Source: a virus. From it: a stretch of DNA of 62,911 nucleotides. Each line of letters starts with the position of its first letter. The stretch's first letter is position 1. Below, piece by piece: positions 3,105-58,768 of the stretch. The notes under the pieces were generated by a model. That model did no database searches and was not told the origin of the DNA. It saw only the letters and a program-made list of their open reading frames with translations. The stretch lies in IMG/VR virus record IMGVR_UViG_3300045988_079349; one strand, given 5' to 3'. The translations under genes were made by a program, and so were the position numbers.

Positions 3105-3390
3105 TGGGTAGGGTAAGAGAGATTAATAGAGGTAGAGGAAAAGGGATTATTGAATCTATATGAGGATTCGAGTTAGATTACAAGCGAAGCCATAAGAAAG
3201 TGGATAGACTATAGGGAGAATATAAGTAAAATTGGAGAAAATTAGAAGAATAGTAGAGAAAATTGGAGAAATAGTAGAGTTGGGTGCCGATCGGGTCTAG
3301 GTACAACCATCACAACACTCGTCAAAACGATCGTAAACCTAGGCTTCCGCGATTCTTCTACTTCTTTCCTCTTGTTTAATAGCAATAAAA

Positions 3391-3415
3391 AAAGAGAGGT
3401 ATCTCTACCTCTCTT
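3391..3415 (-). terminator. intrinsic terminator for gene 3416..3889
   Basis: Hairpin AGAGAGGTA-tct-CTACCTCTCT followed on the minus strand by TTTTTTT. Confidence 0.55.
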
Positions 3416-3889
3416 TTATCTAAGCCCTCTCAAGAACTTAGCTACCACATCTTCATCATTGTTGCTCTTGATGGAAACGGAGACCGATTCATTTCGCATC
3501 TCCTGAATCGCCTTCTCAATTATCTTATCAAGCTCTTCCTCTGTCGCTGCAAGTGCATCATTGATATTATTCATCCCGACAATTCGGGCAGAAATACGAG
3601 CAGTCTCAGTGATAGCCTCTGCATATTTATTGATAGTATCAGCATCCCACTCAGGGTGAGAAGGAGCATAAATAAGAACTGCAAGCTGTCCGATATGCTC
3701 TGCATCAAGATGCTCATCATCAACAGCATTTAGAAAGTCGCACTCAATTTCATCCAAAGCTTGCTGACGAGCCTTCCGAACCTGATTCTGCTTATTAAAG
3801 ACATTTAGAGCATCAGTAAACTCCTTAGCAATATCGTCGAGAGACGCACCGCCATCAAGAGCACATTTAATCATATTAGTATAATCCAT
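3416..3889 (-). CDS. hypothetical acidic protein (157 aa)
   Basis: ORF track; A/G-rich RBS; promoter immediately upstream. Confidence 0.55.
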   Translation of the reverse strand: MDYTNMIKCALDGGASLDDIAKEFTDALNVFNKQNQVRKARQQALDEIECDFLNAVDDEHLDAEHIGQLAVLIYAPSHPEWDADTINKYAEAITETARISARIVGMNNINDALAATEEELDKIIEKAIQEMRNESVSVSIKSNNDEDVVAKFLRGLR

Positions 3890-3902
3890 GGAATATATTC
3901 CT

Positions 3903-3960
3903 CTTTTCTTTCCTTTTATATTTATATTATATAATATTATTTTATAAATTGCAACCGATC
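3903..3960 (-). promoter_or_regulatory. sigma70-like promoter (TTGCAA-17-TATAAT) for gene 3416..3889
   Basis: Reverse complement reads TTGCAAtttataaaataatattaTATAAT. Confidence 0.5.
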
Positions 3961-4600
3961 GGTCCTAGCTTAAAGATCTTTTATTCTAAAATAACTTCTC
4001 TGATTGAGGCATCGACTAGAAAATTCTTAGCTAGAGAATAAGTCTTTTTAATTGTATCTATAAAAGTATAGAAAGGGTGAACATCAAGAAGATTTGCTGA
4101 AAATGAGGCAAATTTTGCTAATTTTTAAGTAATTTTATTAGAAAAATGTGCGTTTTTGCTAGATTTTTAGAGAATTTTCGCTATATTAAGAGAAAAACAA
4201 GAGGAAAAACCTGCGGACCGATCGGTTTACCTAGCTAAAAGTAGAATTTTCTAGCTATTTTTATTATAAAATCTCGTTATTCCGATCGGCGCCGCGAAAA
4301 AATCTCTCGCTGGTATTTGTTTTTCATAGCAACATCTTTGCTATTGTTAGCTGTATAGGGGATAATGTTAGTCTTATGAACACTTGACAATTTTAAATTT
4401 TTTTATTATAAAAAATGGACGAGAAAGCCGCTATTGCTGGACCGATCGGGATAAGATAGAAAACCGATCGGGTTATAATATAATTTTGGGAGATTCTAGA
4501 CTAAGTTGCGTTATGGCCAACTTGCTATGAAAATTTTGCGCTATGGTCCGATCGGGGAAATTCGGGCCGAGTCGCCCGCGACCGGCCCGCCCGCATATTG
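3950..4600. other. ~650-bp AT-rich noncoding region with seven CCGATCGG palindromes and TTTTGCTA-like iterons; candidate replication origin or regulatory hub
   Basis: CCGATCGG occurs at about 3297, 3955, 4217, 4283, 4441, 4465 and 4548. Repeats such as aattttgctaat, gtttttgctagat and aattttcgctata occur at roughly helical spacing. No ORF longer than 60 aa. Confidence 0.35.
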
Positions 4601-4634
4601 GGATAAAAAAACCACCCCATTTCTGGGGTGGTTC
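4600..4634 (-). terminator. intrinsic terminator
   Basis: Minus strand reads CCACCCCAGAAATGGGGTGG followed by TTTTTTT. Confidence 0.6.
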
Positions 4635-4637
4635 TTG

Positions 4638-4990
4638 TTAGCTTAGAATAACCGGGTATGCTTTGCGGATAATGACTGTTACCATGCGCGGGGGCGTGTT
4701 ACAGAGAAAACGGTCATTCCTGATAAAATGTCCAATTCCCATATTCTGCCACAAAGTCCGGTTCAAGTCCTCATACCGCAAAGTATTATACTTAGATAGC
4801 CGGATATACCAATCATAGGTAAAAGCACTATCCGCAGGCATGGTATAATCTCTTGCCCGTTTATAGTTTCTCGTATGCTCGGCGGCTCGTCTTGCAAGGT
4901 CGTTTGTCGTGCCAATCTTGAGAATATAGCGTCCCTTTACGTCTACATAATGTCCGACGTATAGAAACTCCTTCTCCCGTGTCTGCGTGC
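4638..4990 (-). CDS. GIY-YIG / T5orf172-like domain protein; start codon unclear (possible pseudogene or non-canonical initiation)
   Basis: ...EKEFLYVGHYVDVKGRYILKIGTTNDLARRAAEHTRNY... in frame with the track ORF 4638..4841. No ATG, GTG or TTG lies in frame upstream of the motif before a TAA at about 5045. Confidence 0.4.
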
Positions 4991-5044
4991 TAACTATGAG
5001 ATACCTCTTTTCCGGTAGGGCCGGGGTAGGCCAGCCCTACCCCG

Positions 5045-5362
5045 TTATTTCTTAGGCTTCCGCTTTTGGACGAGCGTTAGCTCGAAACTGTCCCCACCGA
5101 TAGAAAACGCAATTTGGCGTTCCTTGTTTGTTATAGCAAGGTCAACAATCGAAAATTGACTGTTTTTCTCCAAAAACTCCGCCAACTCTGCGATTATGCC
5201 GCCTTTAGTTGCGTTTGGTTTGCGTTGCCGTGGTGTAAACTTGTAGGCGGTAGGGGTTTTCCTTGTGCCAGCGTGGGCGAATTTCTGCGCGATTTTCGCT
5301 TTATCGGGCGATAAATCGTATTGCGTTTTTTCGCCAGCTTCCACCGCCTTGTCATAGGCCAA
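5045..5362 (-). CDS. hypothetical basic protein (105 aa)
   Basis: ORF track. Confidence 0.5.
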   Translation of the reverse strand: MAYDKAVEAGEKTQYDLSPDKAKIAQKFAHAGTRKTPTAYKFTPRQRKPNATKGGIIAELAEFLEKNSQFSIVDLAITNKERQIAFSIGGDSFELTLVQKRKPKK

Positions 5363-5499
5363 TAGCTCCGCCTCCTCCTCTGGTGTCAGTTGGAGAGGCT
5401 TATATCTCGATAACCTCTCGGCGTCAGTGATACGGCTCGATATAGTCTCACCCCCTAAGATAGAGTAGGGCGGGGATTTTCGCCCCGCCCTATACGGGG

Positions 5500-5901
5500 T
5501 TACGCCATCTTAAAGAGAGACTTGCCCTTCTTCTCCTGACAGGTCACACGGCCGTCCAGCTTGAGCATCCGCACAAGGGCGGCGGCCTTCTGAGTGGAGA
5601 AAGCGGCCAGAGAGGGCACAGACTTGAAAATGTCGGTACAGGTCACGCCGTCGGTGTCATCGGGCAGGCCGGCCAGATACTCCATAATCTGCTCCTTCAG
5701 GCTCTCGTTCTCCTGCTGGGTCGGGGTCAGCTTCTTGTCACCGCCGGAGCTATTCTTCTTCCGCAACAGCTCCAGCTCATGGTCAATGACGGTCATGGCA
5801 ATCTCCATGGTTGTGCCATGCTTCACCTCCTCACCAGCCAAGAGGGCCTTAATGTCCTCGAAACGCTGGGCCTTAGTGATACGGATTTTCTTCTCGCTCA
5901 T
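5500..5901 (-). CDS. hypothetical protein (133 aa)
   Basis: ORF track; transcribed from the tandem promoter array upstream. Confidence 0.5.
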   Translation of the reverse strand: MSEKKIRITKAQRFEDIKALLAGEEVKHGTTMEIAMTVIDHELELLRKKNSSGGDKKLTPTQQENESLKEQIMEYLAGLPDDTDGVTCTDIFKSVPSLAAFSTQKAAALVRMLKLDGRVTCQEKKGKSLFKMA

Positions 5902-5934
5902 GGTAATACATCCTTTCTGGTTTTTAGGACTGTC

Positions 5935-6260
5935 CTTGTCCTTTGATTATATTGTACCACACTATCGGGAGTTTGTCAAGAGGTTTTTCAAACTTTTTTC
6001 AAGAGCTTTTGCCCTTTACTTGTTTGCCCTCTCTCGTTCCCCTTATAGTGTAACACACTTTGGAGAGTTTGTCAAGCCCTTTTTTATTCACTTTTCAAGG
6101 TTCCTTGCCTTGTTTTCTGTACTTATTATAGCACACTCACAAGGGCTTGTCAAGAGGTTTTTTGAAAGATTTTTGAAAGTTCGCTGTCGCTGTCTACCGT
6201 TCGTCTCTCTCACTTTCTGTACTTATTGTACCACACCACAAAGCGGATTTCAATTGTGAG
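5935..6260 (-). promoter_or_regulatory. tandem array of three (plus one degenerate) sigma70 promoters with extended -10, carried on ~85-bp direct repeats
   Basis: Minus-strand reads: TTGACAaactcccgatagtgtgGTACAAT; TTGACAaactctccaaagtgtgtTACACT; TTGACAagcccttgtgagtgtgcTATAAT. The plus-strand ORF 5594..6259 is an artefact of this repeat. Confidence 0.6.
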
Positions 6261-6424
6261 GTCCTCCAAAAGAACGTGATTTTGGGATAGGGTTTTTGTG
6301 CAAAATGTTGCACAAAACGGAATCAAATTTTTTGTGCAACATTTACAAGGAAAAAATCGGGTCGCGCCGCCCATGCGCGACCCGCCAAAATATAAAACAA
6401 AAAAAGAATGCCGAAGCCCTCTTT

Positions 6425-6606
6425 TTATCCGAAAAGGCAGTTATCTAAAAAGTCGAACAGGTGTTCATCCTCGGCGGGGATGGATACCAGTATATCCCCG
6501 TTTTCATCGGGTTCATCATGGCTCCATCCCATACGCTTGATGATTTCAAGCGCCGTGAAAACGGCATCGGGACAAAGGGAAGAAGTATATACAATTCTTG
6601 TTTGCA
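6425..6606 (-). CDS. hypothetical small protein (~60 aa, MQTRIVYTSSLCPDAVF...)
   Basis: AGAAAGAGGG RBS then ATG; shorter than the track ORF 6425..6709. Confidence 0.4.
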
Positions 6607-6608
6607 TA

Positions 6609-6758
6609 TTTAACCCTCTTTCTTTGAGTAGAACTGGTCGGCATAAAACTGCATTTCTTTCTGCGTTACCTTGGAAAGCATGGCCTTGATGGTAAATACA
6701 TCTGGGCACGTCCGCTCAAGTAGGAAGCGAATAGCCTTATTCTTTAATCCCTGAAACA
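6609..6758 (-). CDS. hypothetical small protein (~49 aa, MFQGLKNKAIRFLLERT...)
   Basis: GAAGGAGAAATAAGAA RBS then ATG; its stop lies 2 nt before the next start. Confidence 0.4.
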
Positions 6759-6789
6759 TTTCTTATTTCTCCTTCTACCGGGCGGGGCA

Positions 6790-7614
6790 TTAAGCCCCGA
6801 CCCGGATTGTCGGAATCTGCCGCAAACTTGCGGAAAGCTGACGCTGAAAATCTGTCATGGGCGGAAACTCCCGCTTGTTCTCATACAGGGCCTTTCTCAT
6901 GGGCTTATGCTGGCGCATACAGTACCACATGATTTCCGCCTCAATCAGAACATCTTCCAGTCCCGTGTGGCTTTCCTCAAAATCAGTGTTGCCGGAGATA
7001 AACCGCCACACGATTTCCGCAGTCTTGCGGGGAACGCCATTAGCCTGCACATACCCGTGTTCCTCACAGAATTTCTTATAGGTGGGCATCTGGCAAATGA
7101 CATCTTGCGTCATTTTCATAATGTCCCAAATTTCCACGCTGTCAAATGGGAACCAATACCGGAATTTGGAACAAGTGACCCAACGCTGAGTGACCCGAAG
7201 GGCGTTATCATCGAAGCGGGCATTATATGCGGCGACCTCCTTAATGCCGTACCGCTCGATAGTGTCCAGCATGGCCTGACGGATTTCATAGGTAGTAGCC
7301 ATCTTGCGACTGCCAGCCCGCAATTCCTCTACATACCGGGGGATTTTCCAGTTATAGTAGGCCGTCCGCATGAGATCCCGTTCATCGTTGAAAATGTCCC
7401 GATTTACAAAACTTGCGGTTTCGTAAATATTGCCCTTGGTGTCTACGACCGCCCAGCCGCAATCATACACCAAAACATTTGACATATCCATACGGACACG
7501 CTCCGGGGTAATGATTTCCCCATCCTCCCCGATTTCAGCGGGGACAGTCTCGGTTAATGTGTTGGCGGTTTCTGTATCGACCACCAGCACATAATGTCGG
7601 CGTTTATCAATCAT
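6790..7614 (-). CDS. DEDDh-family 3'-5' exonuclease (DnaQ-like)
   Basis: Exo I YVLVVDTETAN, Exo II AYNARFDDNAL, Exo III HTGLEDVLIEAEIMWY; 274 aa with no TAG. Confidence 0.8.
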   Translation of the reverse strand: MIDKRRHYVLVVDTETANTLTETVPAEIGEDGEIITPERVRMDMSNVLVYDCGWAVVDTKGNIYETASFVNRDIFNDERDLMRTAYYNWKIPRYVEELRAGSRKMATTYEIRQAMLDTIERYGIKEVAAYNARFDDNALRVTQRWVTCSKFRYWFPFDSVEIWDIMKMTQDVICQMPTYKKFCEEHGYVQANGVPRKTAEIVWRFISGNTDFEESHTGLEDVLIEAEIMWYCMRQHKPMRKALYENKREFPPMTDFQRQLSASLRQIPTIRVGA

Positions 7615-7639
7615 AATCTATCAAGTCCTTTCTCCTCTT

Positions 7640-7870
7640 GATGGTATTATTATAGCATATTTTATGCTTGGTGTCAAGAGGAATTTTATATTTTTTTTCT
7701 CCGTTGAAAAAGGCGTCGCGATAACCTCTCTCACAAAAGGGACTCTTTACCCTACTCTGGAGAACTTTTTCCTTTCCTCCTGACATGATAATAATACCAT
7801 AATTTTGGGATAACTTCAAGATGGGATTTTGCACAAGATTTTCACTTGAAAATTGTGCAACATCACAACA
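7640..7870 (-). promoter_or_regulatory. proximal promoter (TTGACA-17-TATAAT) plus upstream operator/promoter module
   Basis: Minus reads TTGCACAA-N16-TTGTGCAA then TTGAAG-17-TGgTATTAT. This module is almost identical to the one at 9195-9290. Confidence 0.55.
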
Positions 7871-7876
7871 GAAAAA

Positions 7877-7955
7877 AATGCGGCCCGCGGCGTTCAAGCG
7901 CGGGCCGCTCAAGTTATGAAAAAAATAAAAGCGGGGTTTTCCCCGCTTTTATTTA
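7877..7955. terminator. GC-rich palindrome (GCGGCCCGCGgcgttcaaGCGCGGGCCGC) followed by a bidirectional terminator hairpin (AAAAGCGGGGttttCCCCGCTTTT)
   Basis: Perfect stems; the second hairpin is flanked by A-runs and T-runs. Confidence 0.5.
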
Positions 7956-8144
7956 ATCCCTATGAATTACGGTCTTGAAAATGCTCCTAAGGATGCAAAT
8001 GATAATCCAGATGCCGAAAGTGATTTTCCACGAGAAGGTGAGGGCAAACGCCCAACAGATGAGCCAGATCAGCAGGGCCGTGCCGAAGAAAGAAACCACA
8101 CAGGTGACAAGAACTATAAGGGCGGCAACGAGAAAAGCAAACAT
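7953..8144 (-). CDS. small two-TM membrane protein (63 aa)
   Basis: ORF track; AGGAAGGAGA RBS; hydrophobic throughout. Confidence 0.5.
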   Translation of the reverse strand: MFAFLVAALIVLVTCVVSFFGTALLIWLICWAFALTFSWKITFGIWIIICILRSIFKTVIHRD

Positions 8145-8153
8145 TTTTGAAAC

Positions 8154-8324
8154 ATCTCCTTCCTATCGGGAACGCCTTAAATGGCGTTCCCGACTTTAAA
8201 GCACTTGGCCGAAGGCGACCAAAGAGAACCGGCCTTGCGCTTGGCGTCAGAACGGGCGCGGTCAACATCCTTGCCCACACCCACGAACACATGGCCCGCC
8301 GCAGTCTTAAAGTAGAAATTCATC
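8154..8324 (-). CDS. hypothetical small protein (~56 aa, MMNFYFKTAAGHVFVGVGKDVDRARSDAKRKAGS...)
   Basis: AAAGGAAG RBS then ATGATG. A perfect hairpin GGGAACGCCttaaatGGCGTTCCC spans its stop. Preferred over the track ORF 7987..8292, which has no RBS. Confidence 0.35.
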
Positions 8325-8459
8325 ATAGTAAAGCTTCCTTTCTTTTATGAGGGTTATCCCCTCTTGATGATTAAATTATACCACAATGCGGTGAGATTGT
8401 CAAGAACTTTTTTACGTATTTTCCAGATATGGGGCGGGGATTTCACCCGCCCCTTTTAT

Positions 8460-8924
8460 TTAGTCCAGATTGTTGATATATTCAATAATGTTTGTAGTTT
8501 GGGGGTCTACGGTATCCCCTAAATGCCAGCCGTTTCTAATTTTGCCGTTATCATCAAAGAGGATAAACGGCGGTTCATAGAAACTACGGAATACACATTT
8601 AGCTTTAGTTGTTCCATACGCCACACAATGGCATTTATGGGCCGGAAATTTATGCCTTGCAAGCCATTCCTTTTTGGCGGCTGTGACTGCTTTCTTATAT
8701 TCAGGGGGGCTTTCAGGGGGCAACCATGTAATAACTCGAACCTCCCACCCGTTACTAATTGCGTTTAGAAGCGCATTTCGGAGGGCGTTCATATCCCACA
8801 TGGGGGCGGCGTCTCGGAATGGGCTGGGGTCTCCATCGCGGAGTTTTTCAAGCCAGTTGGGGACTGCGTATAGATCTGCAATTGTCCCGTCCATATCAAA
8901 GCAGAGCATTTTTTTAGTTATCAT
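8460..8924 (-). CDS. HAD-superfamily 5'(3')-deoxyribonucleotidase-like protein
   Basis: N-terminal HAD motif I LCFDMDGTIADLY; NT5C-like size and layout. Confidence 0.6.
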   Translation of the reverse strand: MITKKMLCFDMDGTIADLYAVPNWLEKLRDGDPSPFRDAAPMWDMNALRNALLNAISNGWEVRVITWLPPESPPEYKKAVTAAKKEWLARHKFPAHKCHCVAYGTTKAKCVFRSFYEPPFILFDDNGKIRNGWHLGDTVDPQTTNIIEYINNLD

Positions 8925-8954
8925 ATATATATAACCTCCTTTTGTTTTATTATA

Positions 8955-9179
8955 CTACCTGTTGCCTATCTTGTCAACAAGTTTTTCAAAGAAATTTTTA
9001 TGCCGATATACCTTATAAGGCATTGACGTATAATCCACATAAATTAGAGGGTCGCGCAAAAGAATAGCTTGCATATAGACCCCATAATTCTCTGTGGTGG
9101 TAGTACCACCAAATTGGCGGCGGTAGATTTCAGCCACAGTTAAACACTCATTAGGCCGAATAAACTTTGAAGGTTTCAT
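8955..9179 (-). CDS. hypothetical protein (74 aa)
   Basis: ORF track; AAGGAGGG RBS. Confidence 0.5.
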   Translation of the reverse strand: MKPSKFIRPNECLTVAEIYRRQFGGTTTTENYGVYMQAILLRDPLIYVDYTSMPYKVYRHKNFFEKLVDKIGNR

Positions 9180-9194
9180 TTAGTGTCCCTCCTT

Positions 9195-9330
9195 CTTTCT
9201 GTACTAATAATACCATAATTTAAGGATAATTGCAAGATGACATTTTGCACAAGATTTCAAGTCAAAAATTGTGCAGAACTTACAAACAAGAAAACTCGGC
9301 GCGCTGTGAGCGTCAGCGCGCCGTCGAAAT
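9195..9330 (-). promoter_or_regulatory. operator/promoter module (second copy) plus GC-rich palindrome
   Basis: Minus reads TTCTGCACAA-N16-TTGTGCAA then TTGCAA-17-TGgTATTAT. Upstream palindrome CGGCGCGCTGtgagcgtCAGCGCGCCG. Confidence 0.5.
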
Positions 9331-9362
9331 TTTGGTATAAAAAAAGAGGGCCGAAGCCCTCT

Positions 9363-9821
9363 TTAATTTTCTGCAAATTGAGCTAGAAATTGCGCAGAAA
9401 GTCGAACCATATCATGCGCTGATTCTTTATCGTTTTTATAGCAAATAAAGCCGATTACCTCACCTTCTGCAATAATAGGAGTAACAAACAACGATTTTCC
9501 CTTCCATTCAGTACCCCAATTACGAATATTGAACCATTCATCCGGGGTCTTTGACATTCCGAAGGGGCGAGGGCCGCACAAAAGACTTGAATTATCAAAA
9601 ACCGACGCTAAAATGCCGTTAATGCTTAAAACTTTTTGAATATGTGCGGCCTGAGGAGCAAAAGAAGATAGTAGGGAATATTTCTTGAAAACCACCCCGC
9701 CATCTTCAATAAAGATTTCTAGCGGGTCGCCTTCCCGAATATTCATATTCCGACGAATTTCCTTAGGAATTACTACCCGGCCGAGATCATCAATGCGCCG
9801 CACAATGCCAGTTGCTTTCAT
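9363..9821 (-). CDS. SpoVT/AbrB-family transcriptional regulator (AbrB swapped-hairpin N-domain plus GAF-like C-domain)
   Basis: MKATGIVRRIDDLGRVVIPKEIRRNMNIREGDPLEIF matches AbrB/SpoVT. The likely start is this ATG rather than the track's TTG at 9842. Terminator AGAGGGCcgaaGCCCTCT plus T-run at 9343-9362. Confidence 0.7.
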   Translation of the reverse strand: MKATGIVRRIDDLGRVVIPKEIRRNMNIREGDPLEIFIEDGGVVFKKYSLLSSFAPQAAHIQKVLSINGILASVFDNSSLLCGPRPFGMSKTPDEWFNIRNWGTEWKGKSLFVTPIIAEGEVIGFICYKNDKESAHDMVRLSAQFLAQFAEN

Positions 9822-9872
9822 TTTTTTTATTAGAGAGGGCAAGGCTATTGCTTGCCCTCTCTACCTCCTTCC

Positions 9873-10268
9873 TTAAAACTCCTTGCGCAGTTCCTCAAGC
9901 ATGGCTGTTAAGGTGTTCATATCTCCACCCATTTCTAATTTGACGCACATGAGCCGGGTCTGCTCGTTAATCCATGTGTTAATCTCTGCGATTTCATCAT
10001 CCATTTTTTCCTTGGCCGGAGTATAAATGCCGCAAGTGCAGGTCTGGATGACATTCTCGCAATATCTGGAAGTCTTATAGCCCTTAGCCTGCATTTCCGC
10101 CTGGATAGTATCGCCCAGCTCATTGGCCGACTTGACGATAGCCTCCTTAAAAGCCTCCAGCGCGTCGAACTCTGGCTGATACCTCTCCCGGATAGCCGCC
10201 TCCTTACAGGCAGAAATCTTGCGAACCTCGTCACGAACATATTCTTCAATTCTCTTAGTAACACGCAT
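9873..10268 (-). CDS. hypothetical protein (131 aa)
   Basis: ORF track. Confidence 0.5.
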   Translation of the reverse strand: MRVTKRIEEYVRDEVRKISACKEAAIRERYQPEFDALEAFKEAIVKSANELGDTIQAEMQAKGYKTSRYCENVIQTCTCGIYTPAKEKMDDEIAEINTWINEQTRLMCVKLEMGGDMNTLTAMLEELRKEF

Positions 10269-10339
10269 TTCTAAAAACTCCCTTTCTGTTTTAATTTGAG
10301 AGGTTTTACTCGTTTCCCCTCTTTACATTTAATAGTATA

Positions 10340-10460
10340 GCAGATTTCGGGAGAAGTGTCAATCGTCAAAATGCACAACATTTGCAAACATATTTTGTTG
10401 AAACTGCTGATCCAGAAAAAATCGGACCGCGCCCATCCTGCGCGGTCCGCCCGCGAAAAA
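10340..10460 (-). promoter_or_regulatory. operator/promoter module with GC-rich palindrome
   Basis: Minus reads CAGTTTCAACAAaatATG, then TTTGCAAATGTTGTGCA, then TTGACA-17-TATACT. Upstream palindrome GGACCGCGCccatcctGCGCGGTCC. Confidence 0.45.
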
Positions 10461-10495
10461 AGACAAAAAGAAATGCCCCGAAAGGGGCAAATCTT

Positions 10496-10852
10496 TTAAA
10501 AATTTCCCTCTACATTGTCGCTACAAACCTCCCACCACATATCTTCATCCAGCAGGCCCAGCTCTTCAAGCCACCTGCAAAGTTCCTCTGCCTTTTTGGA
10601 AAGTGAAACCAGATGAACCATGCAATCCTGATCCCGGAAAACAAATATCTTGTCCTTTTCTTCGGTTTCCACTCCCTTCGGGACGGGTTCATTCCCATAG
10701 GCTTCGCCGCATTTCTGCATAAGCAGGCCCCGGTCAGTACCTACAATCTCCAGAAAATCGCCCTCGTTAATTCCGAGAGACTGGCGCACCTCCTTGGGGA
10801 TAACCACGCGTCCCAGATCATCCATCCTCCGAGTGATGCCGATAACTTTCAT
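10496..10852 (-). CDS. AbrB/MazE-family DNA-binding protein (118 aa)
   Basis: MKVIGITRRMDDLGRVVIPKEVRQSLGINEGDFLEIV. Confidence 0.7.
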   Translation of the reverse strand: MKVIGITRRMDDLGRVVIPKEVRQSLGINEGDFLEIVGTDRGLLMQKCGEAYGNEPVPKGVETEEKDKIFVFRDQDCMVHLVSLSKKAEELCRWLEELGLLDEDMWWEVCSDNVEGNF

Positions 10853-10914
10853 CTTTATACTTCCTTTCTAAATTTTATGGTAGGCGCCTAGTTGCCCAGG
10901 CGCCTTTATCCAGT

Positions 10915-11235
10915 TTACAGCATAGACAGAAGGGCGTCAATGTCAACCTCACTGGATACGCGGTCGGCCTCCTCGTCAAAGACTGCCTTCAAAATGTCGG
11001 CCGCATCATCTGGAGTACAGGCATCCTCAAGCAAGAACTTCCCCAGAGATTGAACCAAAGCTAAATCAGCCGAATGGCGGTCTACCGTACGCATCGCCAT
11101 ATGAAGGGCAATCAGGCCATCCTTATCCTCCTGGGTCATCTTAGGCAGAGTAGTCATAATATGCTTCCTTTCTGGTTTATAGAGTTTTCCTTCTCTTGAT
11201 AGTGTTATTATATCATAAAGGGCTAGGTTTGTCAA
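10915..11235 (-). CDS. hypothetical protein (106 aa)
   Basis: ORF track; promoter TTGACAaacctagccctttatgatataaTAACAC-like upstream. Confidence 0.5.
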   Translation of the reverse strand: MTNLALYDIITLSREGKLYKPERKHIMTTLPKMTQEDKDGLIALHMAMRTVDRHSADLALVQSLGKFLLEDACTPDDAADILKAVFDEEADRVSSEVDIDALLSML

Positions 11236-11241
11236 TACCCT

Positions 11242-11385
11242 TTACATCGGAGTATTTATAATATATCCGAACATTGCGATTTCAGCCGTGAAGAATATAG
11301 CAAGCCAGAAATGCTCTTTTACCAGAGCCACTACATACTGGATCGTTAGGCAAATGGCAAGAATGATTATGATAAAAGTTGTCAT
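11242..11385 (-). CDS. small membrane peptide (~47 aa, MTTFIIIILAICLTIQYVVALVKEHFWLAIFF...)
   Basis: ATAGGAGAAACAAAT RBS then ATG; below the 60-aa track cutoff. Confidence 0.35.
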   Translation of the reverse strand: MTTFIIIILAICLTIQYVVALVKEHFWLAIFFTAEIAMFGYIINTPM

Positions 11386-11412
11386 ATTTGTTTCTCCTAT
11401 GGTGGAGAGGGA

Positions 11413-11652
11413 TTACACCCTCTCCACCTCGATAATTTCCATGTCGAAATCTTCCCAGCAGGCCCCAAGGAGCATATCATGCCGCAGGTCGTTTTCGCTT
11501 TCGTAGTCCATATCCTCCAGAATATCCTGCCAGTTATCGGGATTATATTGCTTTTTCAGCCAGTCCCAGCCCGCGCCACGAGCTAACCGCAGATCATCAG
11601 ATACACAGATAATCTTCTCACGATTATCAGCCATAACCACATAGCTTTTCAT
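11413..11652 (-). CDS. hypothetical acidic protein (79 aa)
   Basis: ORF track. Confidence 0.5.
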   Translation of the reverse strand: MKSYVVMADNREKIICVSDDLRLARGAGWDWLKKQYNPDNWQDILEDMDYESENDLRHDMLLGACWEDFDMEIIEVERV

Positions 11653-11898
11653 TTTCTTTTACTCCCTTTCTTGAGGGCTTTTGTTCTCCCCTCTTGATGG
11701 TCTAAGTATACCAGAACGGGAGGGGAAAGTCAAGCGATTTTGGGAAATTTCCTCTCGTCAATTTCACCAATAAACTGATCCAAAAATTGTGCAAATTGCC
11801 TCTTGACAAAAAATTCCGGCCGCTGCGCTCATGCGCGGCCGGCTGAACAATATATTTTGAATTGGAAAAGAAATTCCTCCCATTTTGGGAGGAAAATC

Positions 11899-12096
11899 TC
11901 AATCTACATATTCTCGATTTAAAACTTTTACAACCTCTTCAGGTTTACGTCGAGACCGGAAAAGAGCATCTTCATAGGAATAACCAGAGATATTGTCGGT
12001 CGAGCCATTTTCAAGCAAAATCTCAAATTCATACATATCTCTCAACTTCCTTTCTTTTGATAACTTAATTTTAACATAAGAATTTCGGGAAGTCAA
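11899..12096 (-). CDS. hypothetical protein (65 aa)
   Basis: ORF track only. Confidence 0.35.
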   Translation of the reverse strand: MTSRNSYVKIKLSKERKLRDMYEFEILLENGSTDNISGYSYEDALFRSRRKPEEVVKVLNREYVD

Positions 12097-12329
12097 TCGG
12101 TACTTTCAACAATTTTCATTCCATTTGCTTGTATAATTCGCATAGCTTCTTCAAGAGAAGTATTGTCAACGGAGCCACAGTCGATACAAATATATTTTCT
12201 GCCATCCTTTACCATAGTAGTGAAATAATATTCTTGACCAGAAACAAGGCCCATCTACTCTCGTAGTCTTACGGGAATCATGATGCGCCCACTTGAATCC
12301 AATTTCCTTGAGAAAGTAGTTTCTTGCAT
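12093..12329 (-). CDS. AbrB/MazE-like swapped-hairpin protein containing one in-frame TAG (78 aa)
   Basis: MQETTFSRKLDSSGRIMIPVRLRE[TAG]MGLVSGQEYYFTTMVKDGRKYICIDCGSVDNTSLEEAMRIIQANGMKIVESTD. The AbrB-domain alignment (RKVDELGRVVIPIELRRTLGI...) runs straight across the TAG. Confidence 0.55.
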
Positions 12330-12581
12330 TTTGATAAATAAATTCTAGTGACCTAGGTTCGTGCGAAAAACGACTCCATCACGGGAATCGCCGATTTGTA
12401 ACAATCGGAGGGAATAATTACCACTCGCAAGGCATTTTCTGGCAGAACTGAGCCATAGGACAATTCTTACAAGAATCCTAGTTCAAACAGAACTCCAGAA
12501 TGACCGCAAGAGCTTTCAGCACTTCTAAGGTTATTAGAAAACTCCTTTCTTTGTTTTTCTATATATATTATAGAATATTTT

Positions 12582-12616
12582 TTTAAAAAAAGCAAGGGCT
12601 GACTTATGCCAGCCCC
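12582..12616 (-). terminator. intrinsic terminator for gene 12710..12961
   Basis: Minus reads GGGCTGGCATAAGTCAGCCC followed by TTGCTTTTTTT. Confidence 0.5.
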
Positions 12617-12709
12617 AGCCTCTGCAACCAGACAAGGTGATATTTCCCCAATCTTACCAAAACTGTTCCATATCCCTTATTAGTCCAAACGGTGGAACCA
12701 ATAGGATAT

Positions 12710-12961
12710 TCACGCGGAAGTCTCTCGATAGTCATTGATAATCCCCTTTTCTGTAAAGAATCCGACAAGATGTTCTGCTGCACTGGACTTATGCGGAGTT
12801 ATCAACAACCACGCACCGCGAAGATTATCAATAGTCGATAAAGACCAGTCCGCGCCCATCTGACTAATTAAGCACTCGAAACTTGCTCGATCCTCAAGAG
12901 AGTTAAACGAAACTACATATTTTCCCATGCGGAAATCGACCTCCATAGAATTTTTTATCAT
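12710..12961 (-). CDS. hypothetical protein (83 aa)
   Basis: ORF track. Confidence 0.45.
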   Translation of the reverse strand: MIKNSMEVDFRMGKYVVSFNSLEDRASFECLISQMGADWSLSTIDNLRGAWLLITPHKSSAAEHLVGFFTEKGIINDYRETSA

Positions 12962-13000
12962 GGGGAGTGGAAGTCATAGACCTCCACTCCCGCAGGTTTC

Positions 13001-13240
13001 TTATGCGTTAATGTAGATATTAACGCCACCTTCTTCTCTCATTTCAATCTCAGTCACCTGCTTCTTGAACAGGGCGCTGAGGTCATCGCCATAAAAGTCA
13101 CCGCCGAGCTGGAGCTTCCATTCCTTGTCAAACCGGAAATGTGCGCCGGTATTGCTGTCGATTACCTGAATAGCCGCATCCTCTTCCAGACAGAAAGAGT
13201 ATTGCCGGAACAAAATCACAACGTCTTTGAAGCACACCAT
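13001..13240 (-). CDS. hypothetical protein (79 aa)
   Basis: ORF track; promoter TTGACA-17-TGgTATATT upstream at about 13290-13330. Confidence 0.5.
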   Translation of the reverse strand: MVCFKDVVILFRQYSFCLEEDAAIQVIDSNTGAHFRFDKEWKLQLGGDFYGDDLSALFKKQVTEIEMREEGGVNIYINA

Positions 13241-13339
13241 TTCTTTTACTTCCTTTCAAATTCTTTTTGTGGTCTGTCTCTCTGGACAAGTATAATATAC
13301 CATACCCACAAAGGAATGTCAAGCGATTTCGGGAGAAAA

Positions 13340-13441
13340 ATTCTCGGCAGATTGCACAAACTTTTGGCCATATAATTGTTGAAACTGCCGAACAAACAAA
13401 AATTCGGGCCGCGGCGCACGCTGGCGGCCCGGCGAAAAGTC
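13340..13441 (-). promoter_or_regulatory. operator/promoter module with GC-rich palindrome
   Basis: Minus reads CAGTTTCAACAAttATATG, then TTTGTGCAA, then TTGACA-17-TGgTATATT. Palindrome CGGGCCGCGGcgcacgCTGGCGGCCCG. Confidence 0.45.
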
Positions 13442-13640
13442 AATATGGGAAAGTGCACAAAAATATCCGGCAATCTTTGTGCAGATTACCGGATAGAATA
13501 TTAAAACATCACAGTAAAGAAGTTATACTCACTATGCTGTGGATTTGGATAGCTGTTATCTGCTACTATGTCAGCCCAGCTCAAAGCAATCCAGAGAAGG
13601 AGAGCGGCGCAAAGGCCGCCTCCTATATACCGTAGCACTC

Positions 13641-14027
13641 TCATACCGCAGGCTCCTTCCCCAGAAGGTCATACCGTCCAGGGATTTCGGCATTAAGCCT
13701 ATCCCATTCTTTGGCAGTTACCCTGTCATACTCATTATAATAGTTATCCCGAATGATATAAAGCTGTTCTGTGGTGTCCTTATCCAGAGCGGCCTTATAC
13801 TCGTCAAGAGAGGCAGGACGAGTGTGAAGCTTGCTGTTGATATACCGTGCATTGATAAAGGCCCAATGTGGCATGACGGCCTTAGAGATAGCATTAAAAG
13901 CGTCTAAGTCAAGGATGATACCATCATCCACAGCGGCCGCCTTCACATTCATGGAGTAACGGAGAACACGCACGAACTCAGGCTTATTAAAGGTGGGATT
14001 GGTGTAATACTTGATGAAGTTAGACAT
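13641..14027 (-). CDS. hypothetical protein (128 aa)
   Basis: ORF track. Confidence 0.5.
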   Translation of the reverse strand: MSNFIKYYTNPTFNKPEFVRVLRYSMNVKAAAVDDGIILDLDAFNAISKAVMPHWAFINARYINSKLHTRPASLDEYKAALDKDTTEQLYIIRDNYYNEYDRVTAKEWDRLNAEIPGRYDLLGKEPAV

Positions 14028-14082
14028 ATCTTTTATCCTTTCTCCCCGTATAGCCGTTAGGTCAGCTTCTTGTGGTATATGG

Positions 14083-14232
14083 TTACTTGATAGCTTCGCC
14101 GGTAGACAGGTCTACAATCCAATAGTCAGGATTGACAAGCTCATGGTCTACTCTCCATCTTGCGTGTGCAAAAGTAGACGGCTCATAGTATCGCATTTTG
14201 TCACCCACTAAAACCTGCAACTGATACCTCAT
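14083..14232 (-). CDS. hypothetical small protein (~49 aa, MRYQLQVLVGDKMRYYEPSTFAHARW...)
   Basis: AGAAAGAAGG RBS then an internal ATG of the track ORF 14083..14346. Confidence 0.4.
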   Translation of the reverse strand: MRYQLQVLVGDKMRYYEPSTFAHARWRVDHELVNPDYWIVDLSTGEAIK

Positions 14233-14303
14233 AATACAGCCTTCTTTCTTTTGATTATTATAACCCTGCCTTGCCTTGGGTTTTGCAAGGCAGGGTTTAT
14301 AAA

Positions 14304-14681
14304 CTACTGCTGATTGAGTTCTTTTTGCTGGTCTTTCGTTGCCCAATCAAGAGAGGTTCTGACCGTCGGACGCTTGCGGTATTGCTCCGCCTCTGCCTCT
14401 GTGCCGCCTTTAGCTAAAGCGTAGGCTTTCCAGTCTATCGCTCCTTTAGCGGTAGTCTCTTTATAGACCACCGCATGAACGGCGCCCTTTATCTGGACTG
14501 TGCCGTACAGATAAGAGGTCTTATCCGTGGTCTTGAACTCTTTCCCCAAACGGGTGAAAAGCTCTTTCGCTTTGGCCTTGGCCGCTTTCTCTGCAACCTC
14601 TGCCGCCGCTACTGCTTGCTTAGCGGCTAAGTACTCCATGATGACCTTCCTATCATCATTAGTAAAATCAATCTTTTTCAT
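14304..14681 (-). CDS. hypothetical Ala/Lys-rich protein (125 aa)
   Basis: ORF track; promoter TTGACA..TGaTACAAT at about 14725-14765. Confidence 0.5.
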   Translation of the reverse strand: MKKIDFTNDDRKVIMEYLAAKQAVAAAEVAEKAAKAKAKELFTRLGKEFKTTDKTSYLYGTVQIKGAVHAVVYKETTAKGAIDWKAYALAKGGTEAEAEQYRKRPTVRTSLDWATKDQQKELNQQ

Positions 14682-14849
14682 CTTTTTTACTCCCTTTTTT
14701 TTTGTGGTGTGGTTCTCTTGTGTTCTGCCTGTATTGTATCAAGTCTTTTAAGACTTGTCAATACTTTTTTTTGAAAAATTTTTAATTTTCAAGGTTCAGG
14801 GGTTTTGCCCTTGTCCTAACTGGACAAGTCCAGTTTACACCCATTGACC

Positions 14850-14945
14850 CCATTTGTCAACAGTTTTTTTGCACAAGATCCGCATTGTCCTGTTGTGCAG
14901 TTTGCACAAGTCTTGTCTTTACGCGCGTGCGCGTGTTCCTTTAGG
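14850..14945 (-). promoter_or_regulatory. cluster of TTGTGCAA/TTGCACAA operator boxes plus GC-rich palindrome
   Basis: ttttttgcacaagatccgcattgtcctgttgtgcagtttgcacaag followed by cgcgcgtgcgcg. Confidence 0.4.
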
Positions 14946-15317
14946 GCGTGGCTTTTTACTTTCATGCTTTAATGAGTGAAAGAGGCTGACTACACTTCAG
15001 CACTTTACCATGTGAAAGGGGAGGGTGTATTTTGGGAAAAACTGGAAATTTTTTCGCAAATTCGTTCTGCCACGCCATTTCAAAATCCAAATCGTACTTT
15101 CAATCTCAATAACGGAAAAAAGATGAAAGGCTAAATTTAACCTTTCATCTTTTTTCCACAACTAGGGCAAAAATTATATTCTCCTGCTTCATCATAGGTA
15201 ACTAATAAATCGCCATCTTCCTTATAACACGAATGAGTGAATCCGCAATTTAAACACAAAGAATATAAGGCTCCATTCCCCTTAAATTTTATAATAAGCC
15301 ATTTTCCATTCTATCCC

Positions 15318-15755
15318 TTAATGGTATAATTGATATTTTCTGCCAATCTTATCAATCTCCTCAGCTTCCATTGGCCTAAATCCAATACAAGTGAGAGTCC
15401 CTTCAGGACTCTCTTTTTCCAGCTCTGTCCTGCAAGCATCGTAAATCAAAAAGTAATCTTTATACTCCTCCATACCGAGCTCTTTAGCTGCTTCGACCGC
15501 CCGCAATAAATCATCTTTATTCTTCGCGCGGCAAACAACTTTAGTCTCTGCCCCCGTTATCCAATCATGGAATAAGTCTGTATCGAGACTTATATCCATA
15601 TGATACATAATGCCATCTCTTTCCCGAACCACTTCTTTGCTTCCCCAAAGAATCTTTTCCAAAAGAAAAGCAATAGAAGCATGGGAAACTTGCGCAGCTA
15701 GCTTACCCGGAGACATATTTAAATCTTTTCTAGCTATAATTAACTGTTTATACAT
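15318..15755 (-). CDS. pth2: peptidyl-tRNA hydrolase, PTH2 family
   Basis: LIIARKDLNMSPGKLAAQVSHASIAFL matches the PTH2 signature (vVRtDLkMgkGKiaAQcsHA). Confidence 0.65.
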   Translation of the reverse strand: MYKQLIIARKDLNMSPGKLAAQVSHASIAFLLEKILWGSKEVVRERDGIMYHMDISLDTDLFHDWITGAETKVVCRAKNKDDLLRAVEAAKELGMEEYKDYFLIYDACRTELEKESPEGTLTCIGFRPMEAEEIDKIGRKYQLYH

Positions 15756-16504
15756 TCTTTACCTGCTTTCAAAAATGCTCTAAAATTCTGGGAATTGCGG
15801 TCAGGAATTGCAAAATAAATATTTGGAATATTATAATTGCGAGCTGCGCCTATGAGCAAGGTTGCGACCGTATACGGATCTTGCATAAAAACTCCACAAC
15901 CCCAGGCTCCCGCGACTAGATTTTCCACACCGTTTTCCTCAGCAATCTGATACATAAAGTGAATTCGATTTTCAAGAACTCTATCATTCTCGCTTTTACT
16001 CACACTCTGGTATCTATGCGCCGTTCGGAAATTCGGGGCCGCGCAAGTTATAACATCTGCTTCCTTTTGTTTGTTATTCCGCTCGAATACTACACTAGGA
16101 GAATACAGCGCTCTATTCAAGTATAAAGCCTTATTTAACCTCTGCCGATTCCATGCGTAATACGTCCCATCAAAAGCAAGAAGAATAGGGTAAAGATTGG
16201 ATTCATGACACAGAGCCTCTTCTTGCGCAGGACTACCTTCTAGGAAGAAACCACCAGGACTTTTATAACTGGCATAGTTAAGAATTGCTGTTCTACCATT
16301 GTCAGATAAGTTGAATAGACAAGATACGCTATCCATATCTGTTAGAGTAAAAGCTGGTTTCTGATTGCCGGATTCATGCTGTGTAAAAGAATCTGGACTA
16401 TATACATATGTGCGCTCGATAGATAATTTAGTGTTTGCGGCAAGTCTAGTTTTAATATCTTCATAATGAGCTCGTGCCTTGATTGCGCGCTCCTGTTTTG
16501 TCAT
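15740..16504 (-). CDS. macro-domain / bacterial PARG-like protein (TIGR02452/DUF2263 family)
   Basis: NYASYKSPGGFFLEGSPAQEEALCHESNLYPIL and LVAGAWGCGVFMQDP match the DUF2263 PARG-like signature motifs. Confidence 0.6.
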   Translation of the reverse strand: MTKQERAIKARAHYEDIKTRLAANTKLSIERTYVYSPDSFTQHESGNQKPAFTLTDMDSVSCLFNLSDNGRTAILNYASYKSPGGFFLEGSPAQEEALCHESNLYPILLAFDGTYYAWNRQRLNKALYLNRALYSPSVVFERNNKQKEADVITCAAPNFRTAHRYQSVSKSENDRVLENRIHFMYQIAEENGVENLVAGAWGCGVFMQDPYTVATLLIGAARNYNIPNIYFAIPDRNSQNFRAFLKAGKECINS

Positions 16505-16703
16505 CGCGGCCTCCTTTTATAAAAATGCCGTTGGGCAAAATTAAATAATTGTCTTATTTTATTTTTCAAATAAAGTGTGTTGAGTTTTTAATTCCTCGAT
16601 CTTCTACTTTAACTCTTTGTTTTCTTTTATTACTTTTGCATATTCGCATGAATCATCGCATCTAATTGGATCATACTATTGATGCAATCTAAGATAACAA
16701 TAA

Positions 16704-17063
16704 TCAATGCATGGGTTCATATTTACACCCCTTTATTCTACAATCTAGTAAACACTGTCCTGTAGCTCCATCACAGGGAATTGCATCAGGGTAATCCTCA
16801 AAATAAGACGAAGCTAATAGGACTTCATACCCGAGTTCTCGCAATATTCTTTCTGCGATATATCTATTCCTCAGCTTTACCCATTCTTCTCTATTTATTT
16901 TTGTTTCTCTGTATATTTCTCTGGATTTCTCCATATCTACTGTTATGCTGCCATCAATATTAGTCTTAAATGTTGAATCCTGTGTACGATAAAATTCTCG
17001 AAAAGGATTTTCAATATGAAGAACCTCTCTAGCATAATTATCAAAATCTTCTGAGAATTTCAT
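16704..17063 (-). CDS. hypothetical protein (ATG overlaps the folD stop as TAATGA)
   Basis: Track ORF 16704..17096; the more likely start is MKFSEDFDNY at about 17063. Confidence 0.5.
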   Translation of the reverse strand: MKFSEDFDNYAREVLHIENPFREFYRTQDSTFKTNIDGSITVDMEKSREIYRETKINREEWVKLRNRYIAERILRELGYEVLLASSYFEDYPDAIPCDGATGQCLLDCRIKGCKYEPMH

Positions 17064-17854
17064 TATCTTCGCGCCTGTTTCGCTAACTATAAGCAATTTT
17101 TCATCAACCCCAATCTAGTCAATAATCCCACCCCTCCGGGCACAGGAGTTGACCACACTTCATTTCTCTTTGCAATATCTTCAAGTTCAACAAAATCGCC
17201 TTGAATAAAATTCGCCTAATTTCTACGAATACCAACATCAACAACAATAGCGTGAGGGCAAGCCTCTCTTGTCAAAGTAAAATCTCCAACTGCGGATACT
17301 ACTAAATCTGCTATTCTTGCTAAATAAAGCTTCGCATTTACATTTGTTTTACTGTGACAGATAGATACAGTCATATTTCTCGCCAACAACTCTTTCGCCA
17401 TTGGCTTACCAACTATATTACTTCTACCTAATATTAAAGCACTTTTACCTTCATACTTAAAACCACAGTCATCAAGATAGTCTACTATTCCTCTTACCGT
17501 TGCCGGTAAAACAAGAGTAGAAGAAGTTAAACCGTCGCAGTCTTTTATCGTAGGAATTACATCAATAGAAAAAGAACTCAATGAATCTCTTAGTGGCATT
17601 TGTGCTATAATACAATCAGTATCTATACTATTTATGTAATTATTTAAATCTGCGGGAGTCCAGTGTTCTGGAACTTTAATCACGCTTACTGGCCATCCTA
17701 ATTCATCAAAGTCGTCTACTTTTTTCTATATATAAATCTAATTTCCGGCATCCCCGTTAGTTGCATCAATTATGGTCAATGATGGCTTGACATCGGACTG
17801 CCGCAATTCATCTTTCTATTGTTTAAAATATTCTTTTATGTTAATCTATTGCAT
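17063..17854 (-). CDS. folD: FolD-like bifunctional methylene-THF dehydrogenase/cyclohydrolase, translated through 6 in-frame TAG codons
   Basis: Joins the track ORF 17216..17683 to both of its flanks through TAG. N-terminus ...TIIDATNGDAGN[TAG]IYI[TAG]KKVDDFDELG...CIIAQMPL; core GRSNIVGKPMAKELL...VVDVGIRRN[TAG]ANF...; C-terminus ...TPVPGGVGLLT. Confidence 0.75.
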
Positions 17855-35325: not shown

Positions 35326-35435
35326 TAAATCTAATAAAATTTACAAATTAGATAGAGAATTAAAAGGCTCTTGAGAAGATATAATTCTCAAGAGCCTTAT
35401 TTGTTTTATCGTAGAGATAAAGGAGGAAAAGGACT

Positions 35436-57976: not shown

Positions 57977-58616
57977 AACTCAATTCAATAGCTTTTAATT
58001 CATCTATTGAATTAGCTCCAAATATCTAGGTTTTATATTCTTGCATTAAGTGGTATTTTGGATATACCGCATTAGAAATAGCTAAACTTAGAGCGGATAA
58101 TTGCTCTAAAGTCCATGGTACACACTCTTCGTGTCGAGCGTGCCACTCAAGCGTAGGATTTTCTACTTCAGCAGCTACAGCCACCTAGAATTGATTGAGA
58201 TTTAAGCTAATCTCAGATTGGTCCTCCTACGTAATTCCATATTCTTTTCCATCGACCCAAGTTAACGGGTGGGTAGCAAGATACTCTGCGAATAGTTTCT
58301 TGTTTTCCTCTTGTTTATCATATTTTGCCTAATCTAAATCAGCGATGAAAGTACCATCTTCTTGATTATACTTTGAATAGTTAGGAATGACGTTTGATGG
58401 AATTGTTTCCAACTCTAATACTGTAACAGCATTAGGTTGATTTAATACATCGGCTTTGACTAGAGTGTAATGAGTATCACTATCTGAGCCGATAACCCCA
58501 GTTCCCTCTTCTTCCTCGCAGGCAACGACAATACCATTTGAGGATTGCAGTTTAATGTAACGTGCTTCTGAAAGAATATCAACTACTATATTCTCTCTAT
58601 TTAATAGAATATACAT
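57954..58616 (-). CDS. hypothetical protein (~220 aa) with 4 in-frame TAGs
   Basis: Track ORF 58329..58616 continues through the TAG at 58329 to a TAA at about 57954. Confidence 0.4.
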
Positions 58617-58768
58617 TACTTTATTTCAACTCCTTTGAATAATGAACGAAAATAATTGTCCATGTCCTGAATTATATAAAAGCAAGTTCCTTTAGAAATA
58701 TGCGCCCTCCAGCCCTAATAAGATTTCTAAACTTCTTCAGTTGAAATTTTATTATCTAACCATAAAGC

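Follow-up and report, generated by a model that had tools for sequence, protein, structure and literature searches.

The present analysis concerns an 8-bp palindrome, CCGATCGG, which is clustered in a control region of a virus (IMG/VR record IMGVR_UViG_3300045988_079349) whose analysed stretch of 62,911 nucleotides is referred to as the window. The cluster is a real, conserved cis-element and, judging from the sequence, is best read as a further example of a repeated phage operator: the copies are predicted to be operators for one symmetric, sequence-specific DNA-binding protein that would control a leftward cassette with a promoter, a gene encoding an acidic protein of 157 amino acids (aa) and a terminator. 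We put the probability of this reading at roughly 45%. An initial annotation of the region had suggested a replication origin or a partition or regulatory site; the regulatory part of that suggestion fits the conservation of the sites as islands and the fixed site at the promoter, while neither an origin nor a partition site gained support.

The window contains exactly seven copies of CCGATCGG (Table 1), all of which are confined to about 1.27 kb (3287-4555), compared to a mean of 0.16 copies in dinucleotide-preserving shuffles, none of 100 of which reached seven. The earlier count of seven palindromes within about 1.3 kb at a chance expectation far below one thus holds, while the outlying copy starts at 3287 and not, as had been given, at 3297. 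Every copy is exact and individually self-complementary, a search for one-mismatch copies within the cluster returned none, and the CGATCG hexamer occurs eight times in the window, always inside 3288-4554. The tetramer GATC is about twofold rarer in the window than expected (113 versus 218 in a maximal-order Markov model), a shortage which suggests pressure from GATC-specific restriction, and the GATC-containing CCGATCGG sites are kept despite it. AT-rich stretches with a GC content of 21-24% are located around 3850-3950 and 4050-4200. In agreement with the initial annotation, no credible open reading frame (ORF) is present between 3890 and 4637 in any frame, TAG read-through included; if TAG is read through, one frame is open, but it is of low complexity and the frame is not conserved between clades. 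What had been left out is a real gene, that of the 157-aa protein, between copies #1 and #2.

For comparison, 28 related loci were collected, 24 of them via the exonuclease (76-99% identity) and four via a winged helix-turn-helix (wHTH) protein. Four to seven copies of CCGATCGG are found in 27 of these loci at the same relative position, in the same order and with similar spacing, and the sole locus without the palindrome is one truncated contig. Across the seven clades compared, CCGATCGG is exact in 39 copies; no other k-mer recurs in the non-coding regions of all these clades, and they have no longer flank in common. Outside the cores, the non-coding DNA of the clade representatives is 48% identical to that of the window. 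As the flanking non-coding DNA is only about 50% identical, the 8-mers stand out, by this comparison, as islands of conservation. Copies #1 and #4 are conserved without change in all clades, and copy #1 is kept even in the divergent L169. Copies #3 and #4 are always 58-80 bp apart in all clades, and across the relatives copy #2 precedes and copy #1 follows the 157-aa gene. Sites have also been gained or lost: copies #5 and #6 occur only in the window-like and L124-L129 clades, L135 has one extra copy and L130, as the only clade, is without copy #3. Further copies that lie 6-8 kb away in some relatives are located inside coding sequence and look incidental. A comparison between haplotypes (3890-4600 versus L197, L203 and others) similarly revealed intact cores, with a single core change, a C-to-T transition, while the two bases on either side are hypervariable: 8 of the 18 substituted bases (5 of 13 events) fall into the core-flanking pairs, which make up 24 of 711 positions (binomial P ~5e-8 by base).

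Read leftward, the terminator of an early operon is followed by the cassette, which runs from a GC-rich hairpin over copies #7, #6 and #5, the pair #4/#3, an AT-rich stretch and copy #2 to the promoter, the 157-aa gene and its terminator; the block beginning at copy #1 comes next. The leader between the GC-rich hairpin and the promoter of the 157-aa gene spans about 650 bp. This promoter is predicted in every clade with a 17-bp spacer and 10-11 of 12 matches to the consensus, and hairpins equivalent to the terminator of the gene are present in the relatives. Copy #2 is located 0-1 nt upstream of the -35 hexamer in the window and in the L124/L126 and L132 clades (centre at -39.5 in the window and at -40.5 in the two others), and sits 20-21 bp, i.e. 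two helical turns, further upstream in L130 (-60.5) and L143 (-59.5). Therefore, the site is found at one of two places, directly at the -35 hexamer or two helical turns away from it in the upstream direction. A perfect promoter match (TTGACA-17-TGnTATAAT) in the L132 clade is oriented to fire leftward into the GC-rich hairpin, with copy #7 at about +30 to +37, and thus the whole leader and the gene can form one transcription unit. At the place of copy #6, the other haplotype has an extended -10 element (TGGTATAAT). In L169, where the cassette has three copies of CCGATCGG, the position abutting the -35 hexamer holds another GC 8-bp palindrome, TGCGCGCA, and four copies of a 16-bp palindrome, ATACTGTATACAGTAT, are added to the region (5350-6650 of that contig).

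Table 1. Copies of CCGATCGG and associated elements in the window; promoters and terminators are predictions.
Feature	Position	Strand	Remarks
Conserved non-coding block, ~70 nt	3283-3352		Starts at copy #1; holds a second CGATCG at 3328-3333
Copy #1	3287-3294		Between convergent transcription units, ~95 bp past the terminator of the 157-aa gene
Intrinsic terminator of the 157-aa gene	3390-3417	minus	12-pair stem, then T run; stem reads as a plus-strand terminator too
Acidic 157-aa gene	3416-3889	minus	Between copies #2 and #1; no TAG codon
Near-consensus sigma-70-type promoter of the 157-aa gene	3926-3954	minus	TTGCAA, 17 nt, TATAAT
Copy #2	3955-3962		Adjoins the -35 hexamer of the 157-aa gene promoter; centre at about -39.5
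Copy #3	4218-4225		Left arm of an extended inverted repeat, GCGG-n-CCGATCGG
Copy #4	4282-4289		Right arm, CCGATCGG-nn-CCGC
Copy #5	4442-4449		Reads CTGATCGG in the commoner population haplotype
Promoter-like site around copy #6	4457-4484	plus	TAGAAA, 16 nt, TATAAT; consensus match
Copy #6	4464-4471		Inside the spacer of the promoter-like site
Copy #7	4548-4555		7 bp from the GC-rich hairpin
GC-rich hairpin	4563-4589		CGGGCCG-AGTCGCCCGCGAC-CGGCCCG; right-hand edge of the conserved cassette
Intrinsic terminator ending the leftward early operon	4604-4633	minus	8-bp GC stem, then T run; also in the minimum-free-energy fold

The sites are hence exact, clustered and conserved, and one of them is placed at a predicted promoter. 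Recognition by a symmetric protein that binds double-stranded DNA is suggested since every copy is self-complementary, one and the same word is used at all sites and in all clades, the copies are clustered, and one member holds a fixed promoter-proximal position. Exact self-complementary copies are what recognition by a symmetric protein predicts, whereas a hairpin stem needs only two mutually complementary arms. As would be expected of an operator array, the word is repeated and conserved in the non-coding control DNA of the relatives, and a site abuts the core elements of the predicted promoters in a conserved register. The binder would probably act as a repressor or a roadblock; given the near-consensus promoter, activation is less likely. 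The promoter would be strong by itself, and a two-fold-symmetric protein bound beside the -35 hexamer would shut the cassette off, with further bound sites in the leader and just past the terminator adding to the shut-off. Either RNA polymerase might be blocked, or transcription reading through from the operon upstream might meet a roadblock, and the sites might cooperate. The displacement of copy #2 by two turns would suit a face-dependent activator as well. The arrangement in L169, with a different palindrome at the -35 hexamer and the four 16-bp palindromes, looks like that of a regulatory hub. Protein binding as such, the identity of the binder and the sign of regulation are what we infer.

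Several points weigh against operators. Transcription factors rarely recognize a contiguous, never-degenerate site of 8 bp, which is a more typical target of restriction or modification enzymes. Copy #1 is located between convergent genes, where a promoter is not expected, copies #3 and #4 have no consistent promoter context across the clades, and the spacings between sites are not consistently whole helical turns between clades. The hypervariability of the core-flanking bases in the population is not predicted by simple operator models, and the promoters are consensus matches predicted in AT-rich DNA. In addition, no binding protein is assigned to CCGATCGG, for which there are candidates only. 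These may be a ribbon-helix-helix (RHH) protein (1898-2041), three AbrB/MazE-like proteins of the early operon (9363-9821, 10496-10852 and 12093-12329), a 105-aa basic protein (5045-5362) or a 133-aa protein (5500-5901), the C-terminal part of which, read by eye, is a possible winged helix; alternatively, the binder may be encoded outside the window, which covers 63 of about 140 kb and leaves about 80 kb of the genome beyond it. The RHH protein matches Pfam RHH_1 and DUF6290 and a PHROG termed 'Arc-like repressor', and its gene is located 1.25 kb from the sites and is syntenic in all clades. However, its own promoter has no CCGATCGG, and in one clade its beta-strand is not the same although the palindrome there is unchanged. 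The 157-aa protein is unlikely to be its own regulator or a DNA binder, as it is strongly acidic and without a family or fold match. A host factor was considered because pairs of CCGATCGG occur in unrelated low-GC phages (L096, L030, L042 and L053), but these phages belong to a single family that has no protein in common with the window, and CCGTACGG, a palindrome used as control, gave as many low-GC pairs (8/120 versus 7/120). The atypical exactness of the site, the place of copy #1, a hairpin formed by copies #3 and #4 and the hypervariable flanks keep two further models alive, one based on enzyme targets and one on RNA hairpins.

According to the first of these models, the palindromes are recognition sites of an enzyme, either of a methyltransferase acting as an epigenetic switch or of a nuclease that nicks or cuts the control region. 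Such an enzyme would account for an exact 8-bp palindrome without degenerate copies, and the GATC/CGATCG core in a window that otherwise avoids GATC, the concentration of substitutions next to the cores and the C-to-T transition as the lone core change point in the same direction, as does a gene of the GIY-YIG superfamily (T5orf172; 4638-5051, minus strand, ~134 aa) that adjoins the region in most clades. However, no methyltransferase or restriction-enzyme family was found among the window proteins scanned. T5orf172 is absent from L169, where three sites persist, and was for this reason also dismissed as the binder. Moreover, neither the clustering nor the fixed promoter-proximal position is predicted by enzyme sites alone, and we regard this model as unlikely. 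Quite unlikely, too, is a more specific version in which the enzyme would act at the sites to mark or break the DNA that controls an immediate-early, fast-evolving acidic gene, possibly one for anti-defence. This version would explain why degenerate copies are missing, why a GATC core is kept in a genome depleted of GATC and why the flanks of invariant cores are hypervariable; if true, it would represent an epigenetic or damage-coupled switch in stop-codon-recoded gut phages.

The operator reading has precedents in known systems. The 15-bp SPBRE repeats of phage SPbeta, first seen in silico and later shown to be a repressor recognition site, are bound by the master repressor MrpR (YopR) and are spread over about 9-10 promoters genome-wide (PMC10516654). 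As with SPBRE, the control regions between genes of a large Firmicutes phage contain several copies of a short conserved word, and the large terminase of the present phage is related to the YonF group of SPbeta. In contrast to SPBRE, the word is an 8-bp perfect palindrome which is concentrated in one cassette of 1.3 kb, and no MrpR-like recombinase-fold protein was found in a search confined to the window. Of the KorB operators on plasmid RK2, one class is placed immediately upstream of a -35 hexamer, and the operators remain active over a distance of 1.5 kb (PMC11790492). They resemble the present sites as highly conserved multicopy palindromes with one located beside a -35 hexamer and others distant from promoters, but are 13 bp long and dispersed over the plasmid rather than clustered, and KorB is a ParB-family CTPase partnered with ParA, a family that was not detected among the window proteins scanned.

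Among RHH repressors, MetJ has an 8-bp palindromic operator, the metbox AGACGTCT, and metboxes are arranged in tandem and are degenerate. The present palindrome likewise has the size read by one RHH dimer, and an RHH gene is nearby; in contrast to metboxes, the CCGATCGG sites are dispersed and exact, and the promoter of the RHH gene lacks a site. Finally, a clustered short word with a GATC core in non-coding, partly AT-rich DNA is reminiscent of iteron origins and of the pac site of phage P1, which comprises seven GATC-containing hexamers spanning 160 bp inside a gene. The CCGATCGG sites differ from P1 pac in spanning 1.3 kb around a gene, and from both systems in lacking a skew signal, DnaA boxes, a replication or terminase gene next to them and a fixed end of the genome.

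To the left of the cassette, beyond variable-number tandem repeats (units AAAATTGGAG and AATAGTAGAG; 3228-3279, left of copy #1) that are also present in L001, L199 and L203 and at which several metagenome contigs break, a convergent set of plus-strand genes comprises those of the RHH protein, a DUF5659 protein and the wHTH protein, followed by a repeat array and a 49-aa ORF. With TAG read through, the wHTH gene, which has a weak match to HTH_36, probably extends from 2242 to 2640. The array directly after it (2645-2865, and in addition 2907-2929) consists of at least five palindromic 23-bp repeats, CATGGTATT-N5-AATACCATG, with five matches at up to three mismatches versus 0.02 expected. The proximity of the cluster to a wHTH gene and an operator array, as initially described, could thus be confirmed and the array is genuine; its motif is distinct from CCGATCGG, and it is the better candidate for iterons or operators. 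To the right, the genes of T5orf172 and of a basic protein (5045-5509, minus strand) are both conserved and without an obvious ATG start, and the homology of the basic protein reaches upstream of the listed TTG start.

On a larger scale, a leftward early operon extends on the minus strand from about 17.9 kb to 4.64 kb. Its GC content (4600-17500) is about 45%, compared to about 33% elsewhere, and the boundary falls at the hairpin and palindrome region. Between 9363 and 17887 (minus strand) it encodes the three AbrB/MazE-like proteins, a microbial PARG/macro-domain protein, a PTH2 peptidyl-tRNA hydrolase and a FolD-like enzyme. The ORFs between 18.2 and 57.5 kb (18235-57472, plus strand) are open only if TAG is read through, as exemplified by a frame of 2,938 codons (35421-44234), and in the RHH and DUF5659 genes (1898-2640 region) TAG aligns with glutamine in homologues. 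A suppressor tRNA was not found in the window, and ARAGORN returned no tRNA for the window and nine relatives. The late genes include those of a portal protein, a sigma-like protein and virion proteins, and the large terminase (21.3-23.1 kb) is 50% identical to those of the Enterococcus phages H1 and VRE9 and 35% identical to SPbeta-type YonF as annotated in phage Sundance. Related contigs range from 80 to 163 kb; the ends of one of 137,976 bp overlap by 55 bp, so that it closes into a circle, and one of 147.8 kb was binned with the metagenome-assembled genome (MAG) of an uncultured Eubacterium. Given the recoding, the kinship of the terminase and the circular assemblies of about 140 kb, the window belongs, by all sequence indications, to a Firmicutes gut phage of about 140 kb with TAG recoding and a circular assembly. 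The DNA between 2300 and 5300 has no similarity to GenBank phages or PLSDB plasmids. A diversity-generating retroelement occupies the far end of the window (58616-62710, minus strand): its reverse transcriptase (Pfam RVT_1) is encoded at 58616-59833, and the template repeat at 60142-60243 has its variable counterpart at 60865-60966, in the 3' end of the gene at 60851-62710. The two repeats differ only at adenines of the template.

The region might also be thought to be a replication origin, in which the palindromes would be binding sites of an initiator beside AT-rich unwinding DNA. It is non-coding with stretches of 21-24% GC, it lies 400 bp to 1.9 kb from the wHTH gene with its weak HTH_36 match and from the genuine repeat array, weak direct repeats are present (two copies of about 21-24 nt with 75% identity; repeat family D8), and the cluster of GATC recalls oriC. 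However, the cumulative GC skew, by which the initial annotation had proposed to check for an origin, has its minimum within the window at about 18 kb, where the gene orientation switches, and a local maximum at about 4.6 kb; the minimum thus lies elsewhere, and yet the motif cluster is conserved. The TTTTGCTA-like direct repeats with which the palindromes had been said to be interspersed occur at chance level (11 in the window versus 6.2 expected, only two of them in the region), a repeat finder returned one two-copy family, and the sites themselves are palindromes and not direct repeats. The iteron-like array at 2645-2865 consists of a different motif, DnaA boxes are not enriched, copy #2 is tied to a promoter and not to an unwinding element, and no replication-protein family was detected among the neighbouring and early-region proteins scanned or in the Pfam entries of the gene calls for about 10 kb further left. 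In the 63 of about 140 kb covered, the features of an iteron-type origin were accordingly not found, and we consider an origin at this place to be unlikely.

Partition is a very unlikely function. In this case, the palindromes would be centromere-like sites of a partition protein of the ParB/KorB or RHH type, possibly serving as operators at the same time, in a phage-plasmid lifestyle. Exact multicopy palindromes at varied distances from promoters, one of them directly upstream of a -35 hexamer, are indeed reminiscent of KorB operators, an RHH gene and a plasmid-like module of wHTH gene and repeats are adjacent, and the genome assembles as a circle. However, neither ParA nor ParB was detected among the neighbouring and early-region proteins or in the Pfam entries of the 10 kb further left, ParB sites are usually 13-16 bp long, and no plasmid or phage record resembles the region; a centromere of the ParB/parS or RHH type was thus not recognized.

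At the RNA level, pairs of palindromes might form hairpin stems in the transcript of the leftward leader and serve in termination, attenuation or processing. The predicted folds of all six clades folded have copies #3 and #4 paired together with their GCG/CGC flanks, with a U-rich tract after the stem on the minus strand in two clades, and the minimum-free-energy fold also joins copies #5 and #6. The perfect promoter of the L132 clade would drive transcription through the region, and an unrelated phage family has CCGATCGG-N18-CCGATCGG with a T run behind it. On the other hand, stems require neither self-complementary arms nor one shared word, several clades have an odd number of sites, copies #1, #2 and #7 are without a nearby partner, and fold z-scores range from -0.4 to -4.9. 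No covariation was observed, with the #3/#4 stem being invariant and hence uninformative. For the block at copy #1, RNAalifold yielded no supported fold (three pairs, no compensatory change). A search of Rfam gave no match at the gathering score or at E values up to 5, and no structured RNA family was recognized. This model is about as improbable as that of a partition site.

The GC-rich hairpin at the right-hand edge of the cassette occurs in one copy per genome and is conserved to the base in this phage clade only, L143 keeping the stem with a different loop. Immediately to its right the strains differ in gene content, L002 for example having two extra genes. The element was rejected as an attP site: its 25-mer was found only in this phage clade and in the phage-sized 147.8-kb MAG contig, and no bacterial attB-like copy was detected. 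In the cultured Enterococcus phage H1 (L326, 9754-10328), a syntenic non-coding gap of about 580 bp after the exonuclease contains a GC-rich hairpin, GGCCGGTCGTGCACGGCCGG, and three GATTTTT(T)CC repeats with weak similarity to the window element, and CCGATCGG is absent from this gap. The least probable of the readings takes the hairpin as a cosN-like cleavage site and the palindromes as cosB- or pac-like terminase-binding sites: the GC-rich symmetric element is single-copy, invariant and marks an insertion hot spot for accessory genes, contig L136 ends 1 nt after it and P1 pac has seven GATC-containing hexamers as well, but the terminase genes are 14-17 kb off on the opposite strand, the 138-kb contig closes on itself, the region with the 157-aa gene has arbitrary coordinates in four ENA assemblies of 140-146 kb, other nearby contig breaks coincide with the variable tandem repeats, and, judged from the assemblies, neither fixed ends nor a cos or pac site could be discerned.

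With respect to the gene that the predicted operators would control, homologues of the 157-aa protein are present in every other clade at 26-35% identity, compared to 55-89% for the neighbouring genes. The family is strongly acidic, with isoelectric points of 4.3-4.8 (5.3 in L169) and charges of -9 to -19, and the protein is predicted to be all-helical, the structure model being of moderate quality (predicted local distance difference test score, pLDDT, of 68). No match was found in Pfam, PHROGs, PDB sequences or structure libraries. The absence of TAG codons is as expected for an early gene, and our guess is that of a tightly controlled, fast-evolving early function.

An operator array at this position would not change any general concept, as repeated operators in phage control regions are well known. 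If the reading is correct, however, CCGATCGG would be the cis-regulatory signature of a regulator in widespread, uncultured, TAG-recoded gut phages of about 140 kb, and might be used as a bait in pull-down experiments or as a reporter element. The cluster would mark a switch point of the early programme and would flag the acidic, fast-diverging gene as a tightly controlled early function, for which anti-defence or host take-over would be a plausible guess.

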